DNA of 7,871 nucleotides from a virus (Duplodnaviria > Heunggongvirae > Uroviricota > Caudoviricetes): the IMG/VR virus record IMGVR_UViG_2537562194_000038. One strand, 5' to 3'. Both the position numbers and the translations under genes were made by a program. Below are positions 1-7,871 of the stretch, piece after piece. The number at the start of each line of letters is the position of its first letter. The first letter of the stretch is position 1. The notes beneath the pieces were generated by a model that saw nothing but the letters and a program-made list of their open reading frames with translations, made no database searches and was not told the origin of the DNA.

Positions 1-276
1 TCGCAAACGACGAAAACTACGCTTTAGCAGCTTAATAACCTGCTTAGAGCCCTCTCTCCCTAGCCTCCGCTCTTAGGACGGGGATCAAGAGAGGTCAAAC
101 CCAAAAGAGATCGCGTGGAAGCCCTGCCTGGGGTTGAAGCGTTAAAACTTAATCAGGCTAGTTTGTTAGTGGCGTGTCCGTCCGCAGCTGGCAAGCGAAT
201 GTAAAGACTGACTAAGCATGTAGTACCGAGGATGTAGGAATTTCGGACGCGGGTTCAACTCCCGCCAGCTCCACCA
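1..276 (+). ncRNA. ssrA: tmRNA (SsrA), 3' portion; 5' end lies upstream of the window
   Basis: Sequence matches, from memory, the E. coli ssrA 3' region including the tag-reading-frame neighbourhood and the tRNA-like 3' end GGTTCAACTCCCGCCAGCTCCACCA ending at 276. Confidence 0.95.
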
Positions 277-547: not shown

Positions 548-796
548 ATGCGTATTGAGATCTGCATAGCCAAAGAAAAAATGACTAAAATGCCAAACGG
601 TGCTGTGGATGCGTTAAAGGAAGAATTAACCCGACGCATCAGTAAACGTTATGACGATGTAGAGGTGATCGTAAAAGCCACCAGCAACGATGGCCTTTCT
701 GTTACGCGCACCGCCGATAAAGATTCTGCAAAAACTTTTGTTCAGGAGACGCTGAAAGATACCTGGGAGTCTGCTGACGAGTGGTTTGTTCGCTAA
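548..796 (+). CDS. DinI-family protein (prophage-encoded DinI-like, 82 aa)
   Basis: ATG at 548 with GAGGG Shine-Dalgarno at 537-541, stop TAA 794-796. The protein ([11 protein letters not shown]...[11 protein letters not shown]) aligns by eye with E. coli DinI (MRIEVTIAK...ETWESADDWFV). Two LexA boxes lie upstream. Confidence 0.9.
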
Positions 797-3478: not shown

Positions 3479-6953
<3,475 letters not shown>

Positions 6954-6995
6954 TCTGTCCCCCTCTCCTGTCTGATGTCTGAATCTGTTTATGCC

Positions 6996-7026
6996 AGAAA
7001 ACAACAGGCACCCCGGAGGGTGCCTG
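6996..7026 (-). terminator. Intrinsic-terminator-like hairpin just upstream of the J ribosome binding site
   Basis: Perfect 9-bp GC-rich stem CAGGCACCC / GGGTGCCTG (7005-7013 / 7018-7026) with 4-nt loop, followed on the minus-strand RNA by UUGUUUUCU. Lies 3 nt downstream of the putative 39-aa ORF stop. Confidence 0.6.
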
Positions 7027-7028
7027 TG

Positions 7029-7148
7029 TCATGACGGAATAAAATTTCTGAAACTCTTCACATTTCCGGCAATTGCCTGTAGCCGCAATAATGACGCTGC
7101 ATTACTTTTTTGATGCCTGAAAAATAACTCCATAACGTTAATCTTCAT
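7029..7148 (-). CDS. Putative small protein (39 aa) in the I-J intergenic insertion; hypothetical
   Basis: ATG 7148-7146 preceded by GGGAGAG (Shine-Dalgarno-like, about 5 nt spacing), stop TGA 7031-7029, hand-translated as MKINVMELFFRHQKSNAASLLRLQAIAGNVKSFRNFIPS. It lies in a roughly 38% GC islet between roughly 58-60% GC tail genes. Several rare codons, no recognisable homology, and below the ORF track's length threshold. Confidence 0.3.
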   Translation of the reverse strand: MKINVMELFFRHQKSNAASLLRLQAIAGNVKSFRNFIPS

Positions 7149-7156
7149 CGTTCTCT

Positions 7157-7193
7157 CCCGCAGCTCCGCTAACTCTGCGGGATTTTTTTATTT
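7157..7193 (+). terminator. Plus-strand terminator-like hairpin with T-tract, antisense to the 5' end of the 39-aa ORF
   Basis: Stem CCCGCAG (7157-7163) / CTGCGGG (7175-7181) with 11-nt loop, then TTTTTTTATTTT (7183-7194) on the plus strand. On the minus-strand mRNA the same hairpin sits directly 5' of the small ORF's Shine-Dalgarno. Confidence 0.4.
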
Positions 7194-7871
7194 TCATCCC
7201 CGCCCGATAACCACCACTTTCCCGTCTCCGCCCTCATCACGGGTGCTGATGTCCTGAGATATCCGTCGTGAACCAACCAGCATTTCACCATAAGGCACCG
7301 GCATCGGGTTCCCCTGGGCAATCATGTTATCCAGTGACGAAAAATACGTGTTCTGTTTACCGTTATCCGTTGCGCGGTAATCCGGTGTTTTTGCCTTCGG
7401 TGCCAGCATCTGGGCCACACCGCCCAGTATCATGCTGGCACCCAGTGAGAACAGCATCGTGGTGGCAGTCAGCCCTCCGGCACTCAGGGCTGCGCCCCAC
7501 AACGCCATCGTTGCGCCGGCGGTGAAGAAAGAGCCCACGATGGCTGCTGCCCCCAGCACAATCTGCAGTCCGCCCTTTCCGGCTCCGGCCAGTCGCGGCA
7601 CAATATGGATGACCGCCCCCTCACCCAGAGGTTCGTGAAGACGGGCGTACACCGCCTCCGGTGCCGTGTCCTCACCGCGAATACGTATCTGGTACCAGCC
7701 TTCGTTCATCTGACGGCGAAAGCCCGGCATCTGCAGCGACAGGGCACGAATGGCTTCCGCTGCCGTGTTCACGTACAGGCTGAGGCGGCGGCCAAATCGT
7801 TGCAAATCCCCGTGAAGGCAGATGCGTGCCAGTGGCGGTGACGCCAGACAGAATGCGTTCGTCGTTGCCAT
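7194..7871 (-). CDS. I: Tail assembly protein I
   Basis: 225-aa ORF; MATTNAFCLASPPLARICLHGDLQRFGRR...GKVVVIGRG aligns along its length with my recollection of lambda gpI. ATG at 7871-7869 (last bases of the window), stop TGA at 7196-7194. Confidence 0.92.
   Translation of the reverse strand: MATTNAFCLASPPLARICLHGDLQRFGRRLSLYVNTAAEAIRALSLQMPGFRRQMNEGWYQIRIRGEDTAPEAVYARLHEPLGEGAVIHIVPRLAGAGKGGLQIVLGAAAIVGSFFTAGATMALWGAALSAGGLTATTMLFSLGASMILGGVAQMLAPKAKTPDYRATDNGKQNTYFSSLDNMIAQGNPMPVPYGEMLVGSRRISQDISTRDEGGDGKVVVIGRG

Follow-up and report, generated by a model that had tools for sequence, protein, structure and literature searches.

The DNA analyzed here (the window) is a 7,871-nucleotide stretch of caudoviral DNA (IMGVR_UViG_2537562194_000038) that is 99.7% identical overall to the ssrA-adjacent prophage of STEC strain 95JB1. 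Its sole match in Rfam 15 was ssrA, at 1-276. Tail assembly gene I runs on the minus strand from the window edge (7871) to a TGA at 7196-7194; the gene is annotated as I in phage VT1-Sakai, and its product shares 67% amino-acid identity with I of lambda. The start codon of the tail tip gene J is a GTG at 6953 on the same strand, and the protein opens with MGKGGGKGHTPVEAKDNL (MGKGGGKGHTP...). J is interrupted within the window and is uninterrupted (3479-6955) in the closest genome.

The two genes are separated by a spacer with a G+C content of 0.39 over 7050-7199, compared with 0.53-0.68 in the flanks. A preliminary description of this DNA, made from the sequence alone, had reported an AT-rich spacer of 240 bp here, against about 60 bp in lambda, with a 39-aa open reading frame (ORF) on the minus strand and two opposed terminator-like hairpins. 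All of these observations were confirmed, and the coordinates of the features are collected in Table 1. The I-J spacer of lambda is 60 bp long (15445-15504), and the 73 lambda-type loci of IMG/VR that could be resolved all had an I-J spacer of 59-60 bp; these phages do not possess the small-RNA cassette described below. Relative to lambda, the spacer of the window contains approximately 180 bp of extra AT-rich DNA.

The 240-bp spacer was 100% identical in phage VT1-Sakai, in the Sakai prophages Sp15, Sp14 and Sp11 and in strain 95JB1, and exact copies were located at positions 2902691, 2676622 and 2166672 of the Sakai genome (NC_002695.2). Further, matches to the spacer were detected in 1841 of 5426 complete E. 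coli genomes, at up to 10 places per genome, and in 147 phage records. The I-J spacer is thus conserved throughout the lineage and is not peculiar to the window. When single genomes representing each species were scanned for the exact pattern, only two tiny contigs, probably contaminants, were returned; this outcome says little beyond absence from the species representatives. The PGAP annotation of the closest genome contains no feature within the I-J gap.

Table 1. Features of the I-J region in the window (strand as in the window; arrows give the direction of reading).
Feature	Position	Strand	Remarks
Tail assembly gene I	7194..7871	-	225 codons from window edge; from the ORF list
Tail tip gene J, interrupted within the window	4200..6953	-	GTG start
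I-J intergenic spacer	6954..7193	.	exactly 240 bp; core ~39% G+C
Small RNA, EcOnc22/23/24 type, sequence variant of PasB	~7115..7189	+	~75 nt
Operator-like box ATTTCTGAAACTCTTCACATTT, invariant	7044..7065	+	CRP core TGTGA-N6-TCACA at 9/10 positions
Candidate -10 hexamer TACTTT (TAnnnT in all cassettes)	7103..7108	+	7 nt upstream of 7115
Alternative -10-like hexamer AATAAT (TATAAT in most variants)	7087..7092	+	would give a primary transcript of ~91 nt
Unstructured RNA body, candidate seed	7120..7145	+	from conservation in alignments of 24-38 variants
Intrinsic terminator of the small RNA	7157..7189	+	7-bp stem, variable loop, A, U7
39-aa ORF MKINVMELFFRHQKSNAASLLRLQAIAGNVKSFRNFIPS	7148→7029	-	probably non-coding, a by-product of the conserved small RNA and promoter
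Terminator-like hairpin of the tail strand (late mRNA)	6995..7027	-	10 pairs, GC-rich stem, U-rich tail

The plus strand of the spacer encodes a small RNA that has already been published, and the annotation appropriate to this element is that of a small-RNA gene. Hfq-CRAC in E. coli O157:H7 Sakai revealed three homologous peaks on the chromosome plus strand, EcOnc22 (Sp15), EcOnc23 (Sp14) and EcOnc24 (Sp11) (Tree et al., 2014; PMC4104026, Table S2), and Northern blotting detected a band of ~85 nt that was destabilised in Δhfq (Tree et al., 2014; PMC4104026). Over its first 23 nt, the Northern probe of that study (GGGAGAGAACGATGAAGATTAAC...) matched the minus strand of the window exactly, from 7159 to 7137, which puts the detected RNA on the plus strand. 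In its central part, the probe as it reads in the PDF disagrees with the window at a few letters. Further, the RNase E-CLASH chimeras reported for EcOnc22/23/24 (PMC5286369) begin with GCCTGAAAAATAACTCCATAACGTTAATCTTCA, which corresponds to the 33 nt at 7115-7147. The preliminary description had suggested that the plus-strand hairpin might end a short antisense RNA over the 5' region of the ORF, and the probe and CLASH matches bear this out.

Note that the published Sakai coordinates refer to an older version of the genome. The offset (~135-142 bp) was fixed using stx2A, the AsxR and HnrS terminators and, lastly, one CLASH read. When the offset was applied, all three EcOnc peaks fell inside I-J spacers, and the Hfq-CRAC peak mapped to 7112-7172, 5' of and into the hairpin at 7157-7181. 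Taken at face value, the published coordinates would place the peak on the minus-strand hairpin, an assignment ruled out by the offset of the older genome. The original report gives the peak, probe and size of EcOnc22/23/24 only, and says nothing of a location between I and J, of a promoter or terminator, or of any link with PasB (PMC4104026). The CLASH hybrids of EcOnc22-24 are few and not significant, and established no target (PMC5286369 data); the targets are given as unknown in a 2021 review (PMC7873438).

The 5' end of the RNA (±1 nt) was deduced from the starts of the CLASH reads and from the annotated 5' end of PasB, an RNA of EPEC described below, and because the two agree we placed the RNA at ~7115-7189. 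The ~85 nt seen on the Northern blot exceeds the 75 nt predicted for the window variant. The transcript ends in a hairpin with the stem CCCGCAG (7157-7163) and CTGCGGG (7175-7181), followed by T7 at 7183-7189, and this terminator abuts the stop codon of I. The stem was the same in 17 of 18 aligned variants and was shortened by a deletion in the remaining one, with loops of 5-17 nt; there was no covariation in the stem, which is invariant among the aligned variants. The folding z-score for the small RNA was -2.9. A terminator scan found a GC-rich hairpin followed directly by a U-tract at both hairpin sites of the spacer, and the U-tract of the plus-strand hairpin is present on the plus strand only.

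Upstream of the terminator, the conserved parts of the RNA body are an A-rich stretch (7120-7127), the motif CUCC (7128-7131) and the near-invariant UUAAUCUU (7138-7145). A 5' stem-loop was predicted for the window variant and was discarded, as only the terminator is conserved. No conserved 5' helix was found across the aligned variants, and the RNA body is therefore probably single-stranded.

A second RNA of this type has been described in another pathotype. PasB of EPEC E2348/69 is an 83-nt RNA on the minus strand (1466343→1466261), strongly Hfq-dependent and with 37 RIL-seq interactions, for which the probe was AATCCCGCAGTGATCGCGGAGCT (Pearl Mizrahi et al., 2021; PMC8550237, Table S6). This probe corresponds to the terminator of another variant of the cassette, and it matches the window itself at 20 of 23 positions. 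PasB is located in a 240-bp gap of prophage PP6, between the end of a tail assembly gene (1466255) and the start of gpJ (1466496), and is antisense to the flanking tail genes, in the same layout as in the window. The RNAs of the window (75 nt) and of EPEC (83 nt) are only 76% identical, and the cassettes from box to terminator are 75% identical. They share the operator-like box, both -10-like hexamers with their spacing, CUCC, UUAAUCUU and the terminator stem, and PasB is annotated to begin one base before the counterpart of 7115.

These likenesses, together with the common slot, orientation and Hfq dependence, indicate that EcOnc22-24 and PasB belong to one family, of which the window RNA is a diverged variant and not PasB itself. 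This link is new here and is not stated in the cited papers. Homologues in EHEC were named for PasA and PasD and none for PasB (PMC8550237, Table S6). A preprint on the distribution of the Pas RNAs places PasB among phage structural genes, with variants that differ by a few nucleotides (10.64898/2026.05.13.724894). Since its PasB variants differ so little, the window variant probably lies outside the BLAST set of that preprint.

Other identities were considered and rejected. HnrS (EcOnc10-12), which is also multicopy in late regions, adjoins the lysis genes of Sp12 and has a different sequence, and the loci of PasA, PasC and PasD are near RusA, Q and holin genes. When Rfam 15 was searched with the spacer, there was no match at E≤1, and no family reached its gathering score for the spacer or the PasB locus.

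A consensus promoter scan detected no promoter on either strand, and the putative promoter of the small RNA is based on conserved hexamers and on the operator-like box. The consensus of the box is A..TCTGAA..TCTTCACATTT; only two inner positions vary among the variants, and nowhere else in the promoter half of the spacer are invariant runs as long. The match to the CRP core is unique in the window, yet at least one such match arose by chance in 53 of 200 shuffled sequences and it is not significant alone. The box fits TGAA-N4-TTCA (Cra-like) equally well. Its center is ~60.5 bp upstream of 7115, and class I CRP sites are canonically centered at -61.5.

The distance from the box to the hexamers (nATnAT and TAnnnT) is fixed in every cassette, with one variant carrying a 1-nt deletion. 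The alternative cassette with an unrelated RNA body, present in three loci (L064, L067 and L069), keeps only the TAnnnT hexamer, as TAGATT, and lacks the AATAAT-type hexamer. The TATAAT-like hexamer at 7087-7092 could still be the real -10, with processing of the transcript to 7115. Growth overnight in LB gave higher PasB levels than growth in DMEM, and CRP-repressed Spf behaved oppositely in those data; this pattern lends weak circumstantial support to catabolite control. The invariant box and its fixed spacing are a new point of this analysis. They suggest that the family may be regulated through the box; the exact start site would lie close to 7115.

We surveyed the I-J junction in 80 IMG/VR loci with an I protein at least 91% identical to that of the window and in five GenBank/RefSeq loci. 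The spacer was extractable from 81 loci and comprised 47 distinct sequences, with lengths of 237-263 bp (54 + 1 loci), ~345 bp (10), ~424 bp (3), 715 bp (1) and 854 bp (12). None of the 81 spacers was lambda-like, all being at least 237 bp. The RNA body and terminator were kept in all 81, and the box was kept in 69, 68 of which had a recognisable terminator. The insert, whose presence in close relatives had been left as a question by the preliminary description, is thus common to the related spacers and absent from those of lambda type.

The 424-bp spacers are tandem arrays in which one box stands ahead of an unrelated RNA body, and the 12 spacers of 854 bp contain an antisense sodC. Besides the EcOnc22-24 and PasB types, the observed RNA bodies comprised four or more further variants and one of unrelated sequence, whose terminator is CTCCCG...CGGGAG. 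The I-J junction is a slot that also takes tandem small-RNA cassettes or antisense sodC, which is new. A more specific proposal, that the junction is a dedicated slot in which one portable promoter module, consisting of the invariant CRP/Cra-like box and a weak -10 at constant spacing, is combined with interchangeable RNA bodies, is tentative, and we regard it as somewhat improbable at present.

The second hairpin of the spacer lies on the tail strand, where 10 pairs (7027→7004) are followed by TGTTTTCT. Its folding energy was -27 kcal/mol (z = -5.2), and 98.6% of the cells were paired across 11 variants. There was one compensatory change, from a C-G to a U-A pair, which is weak evidence, as shuffled alignments equalled it in 48 of 500 cases. 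Several of its G-U pairs are C-A mismatches if read on the other strand. Lambda-type spacers amount to little more than an analogous hairpin with a T-run (AAACCGCC-TGCG-GGCGGTTTTGT), and the minus-strand hairpin is therefore the older element, belonging to the late transcript downstream of I. Further, because the lambda hairpin lacks any ORF, this terminator is not tied to the 39-aa ORF, to which the preliminary description had assigned it. The ~180-bp small-RNA cassette thus appears to have been added to an older, hairpin-bearing spacer. In the 345-bp class the minus-strand hairpin is replaced by another terminator, and in the sodC class it is absent.

The 39-aa ORF is co-directional with I and J. 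The preliminary description had noted its Shine-Dalgarno sequence; the sequence (GGGAG) is present, but is simply what the 3' arm of the plus-strand terminator spells on the opposite strand. Similarly, the complement of the RNA motif UUAAUCUU yields the conserved "N-terminus" MKINV, and the box yields the conserved "C-terminus" NVK.FR.FIPS. When 30 short variants were compared, 19 had ATG at the homologous start and 11 had ACG or ACA; the ORF was intact (ATG to FIPS*) in 7, and 12 had the ATG with a frameshift or an early stop. In the intact copies, differences were spread evenly over the codon positions (e.g., 7:9:11), dN/dS was 0.6-1.0, and the amino-acid identity (56-59%) was lower than the nucleotide identity (75-77%).

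The peptide contains no hydrophobic or transmembrane-like segment (maximum 19-residue hydropathy 0.44; net charge +5), in agreement with its earlier description as basic and not clearly membrane-spanning, and it had no match in Pfam. Older records list the ORF as a "hypothetical protein" only, and PGAP leaves it unannotated. A search of the Sakai ribosome-profiling supplement for the expected coordinate digit-prefixes returned nothing, which is a weak result, as the three identical copies multi-map. Note that the ORF is intact in the commonest O157 variant, in which its translation is conceivable. The spacer is kept across relatives while the frame decays, and we consider that the ORF is most likely an accidental reading frame.

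These results lead us to propose, with a probability of approximately 0.8, that the I-J gap contains a non-coding "moron", a self-contained Hfq small-RNA gene antisense to the tail genes, and that the ORF is accidental. Transcription would start at ~7115 from a weak promoter at a fixed distance from the CRP/Cra-like box and would end at the 7-bp hairpin and U7 that abut the stop codon of I. The product is the Hfq-dependent EcOnc22/23/24 RNA of E. coli O157:H7 Sakai, a member of the PasB family; its identity, strand, extent, Hfq dependence and conservation are documented in the comparisons above or in the cited papers. In a lysogen, the RNA would most likely act in trans as an Hfq-dependent base-pairing regulator, with the A-rich/CUCC/UUAAUCUU body as the seed and the U-tail as the handle for Hfq. 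This mechanism and the existence of trans targets are what we infer from the properties of the RNA. The minus-strand hairpin would be a separate terminator or stabiliser, through which a Q-modified polymerase would read.

The strongest alternative is that the RNA acts mainly in cis on the late transcript after I, by cleavage or interference, and thereby tunes J; we regard this as unlikely as the main function, although it is compatible with the explanation that we prefer. The RNA is by construction fully complementary to the I-J late mRNA, and the cassette is always located at the I-J junction and ends exactly at the stop codon of I. However, the paired region is 160 nt from the start of J and overlaps neither coding sequence, and the 854-bp sodC class and the lambda-type phages, which lack a complete cassette, give no sign that J is affected. 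Further, targets in trans are indicated by the need for Hfq and by the partners seen in RIL-seq. An RNA operating in cis might, in addition, affect superinfecting relatives with the same module.

A protein-coding moron, in which the 39-aa basic peptide would have its own promoter and the minus-strand terminator, is considerably less probable. The ORF has an ATG that is preceded at 6 nt by GGAG, its stop is followed after 1 nt by a terminator, three diverged variant groups contain ORFs of 39-41 aa in the same frame, and some older annotations recorded it as a hypothetical protein. Against this, the consensus scan found no minus-strand promoter, and within the conserved C-terminal block it is mostly the second codon positions that vary. 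Because the RNA was always kept, whereas the ORF was intact in few variants, evolved at the dN/dS given above and encodes no hydrophobic segment, neither a peptide moron nor a type I toxin is likely.

The type I toxin-antitoxin pair suggested in the preliminary description, in which the antisense RNA would block translation of a toxin peptide, is more improbable still. The antisense RNA is real, and 7115-7189 covers the Shine-Dalgarno sequence, the ATG and the first 11 codons of the ORF. This arrangement resembles hok/sok, ibs/sib and tisB/istR, in which a short antisense RNA overlies the 5' end of a small ORF. Unlike in those systems, the ORF here is neither conserved nor hydrophobic, and for this reason the toxin-antitoxin reading fails at its defining feature. 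Further, the Hfq dependence of the RNA and its many RIL-seq interactions in trans, as PasB, are typical of trans-acting small RNAs, and Rfam identified no known antitoxin RNA.

The least probable alternative is that both hairpins are stability or attenuator structures of the late operon with no independent transcript, as the conservation of the minus-strand hairpin and its counterpart in lambda, whose spacer has no small-RNA gene, might suggest; it is contradicted for the plus-strand hairpin by the strand of its U-tract and by the independent, plus-strand, Hfq-bound RNA detected by CRAC, Northern blotting, CLASH and RIL-seq, and is possible for the minus-strand hairpin alone.

The proposed small-RNA gene resembles several known elements. 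AgvB, AsxR, HnrS and PasA/C/D are likewise short, Hfq-dependent, autonomous units in the late regions of lambdoid phages, but they are located downstream of Q/PR', near the lysis genes, and are unrelated in sequence. RNAs of these types are often multicopy in EHEC and EPEC. Morons of lambdoid phages were reportedly described by Juhala and colleagues in 2000. Like these elements (e.g., prophage sodC), the cassette is extra DNA of lower G+C content between conserved late genes. Morons have their own promoter and terminator; the terminator of the cassette is clear and its promoter is putative. The moron layout put forward in the preliminary description therefore holds in that an extra, probably autonomous unit, absent from lambda, is present at I-J; unlike in the known morons, the cargo is RNA and not a protein or peptide.

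The main value of these findings is the correct annotation of the spacer, as a small-RNA gene rather than a peptide moron or a toxin. Since EcOnc22-24 and PasB were named independently in two pathotypes, target and expression data for the one can guide work on the other. For the family as a whole, the invariant box, with its constant spacing to the start site, offers a regulatory input that can be tested. Further, a recombination slot at I-J may help to account for how numerous and how diverse these RNAs are in strains that carry many lambdoid prophages. If the dedicated-slot proposal is true, the diverged Hfq small RNAs expressed by EHEC and EPEC lysogens carrying up to 10 of these prophages would form one family responsive to catabolites.

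The window begins within ssrA (tmRNA), which is followed by a DinI-like gene, and therefore the tail-fibre end of the prophage abuts ssrA (see the table below). Sp15, a prophage of E. coli O157:H7 Sakai whose I-J spacer is identical to that of the window, differs in this respect. Relative to the current RefSeq version of the Sakai genome (NC_002695.2, as opposed to NC_002695.1), the EcOnc small-RNA coordinates given in the 2014-2016 publications are shifted by ~135-142 bp. Without correction for this shift, they lead to the wrong hairpin and to an incorrect part of the spacer.

Gene J is interrupted in the window. In the closest genome, that of the STEC strain 95JB1 (99.7%), J is intact (1158 aa) and the corresponding stretch is 2 nt longer. 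Either J has become a pseudogene through a frameshift, or the break results from a sequencing error. J is also split in VT1-Sakai, at another place. Directly upstream of the J ribosome-binding site, the heptamer CAGACAT occurs in two copies in the window versus four in locus L013, and thus the repeat number in the J leader is variable.

Features of the window
Feature	Position	Strand	Remarks
ssrA (tmRNA), partial	1-276	+	Rfam RF00023, model positions 91-374
DinI-like gene	548-796	+	
J, interrupted	3479-6953	-	frame from GTG 6953 ends at stop 4200; second piece 3982→3479
CAGACAT copies	~6968-6985	-	

When one genome per species was scanned for exact matches to the box pattern, only two contigs were detected, L089 (546 bp) and L090 (460 bp), labeled Asaia platycodi and Parendozoicomonas haliclonae. 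These contigs probably represent E. coli prophage contamination of the respective assemblies.

The I-J spacers of loci L064, L067, L069 (~424 bp) and L071 (715 bp) harbor two or three small-RNA cassettes in tandem. One cassette of these arrays possesses an unrelated RNA body (...AACUCCUUAAGG...) with the terminator CTCCCG...CGGGAG plus U-tract, and the same box is located upstream at the same spacing.

A further class of I-J spacers, 854 bp long and represented by L016 and 11 further IMG/VR loci, carries an antisense Cu/Zn superoxide dismutase gene, sodC (Pfam Sod_Cu, E = 4e-32). Here, sodC takes the place of the tail-strand hairpin and of the cassette's box/promoter half. [quoted passage not shown]
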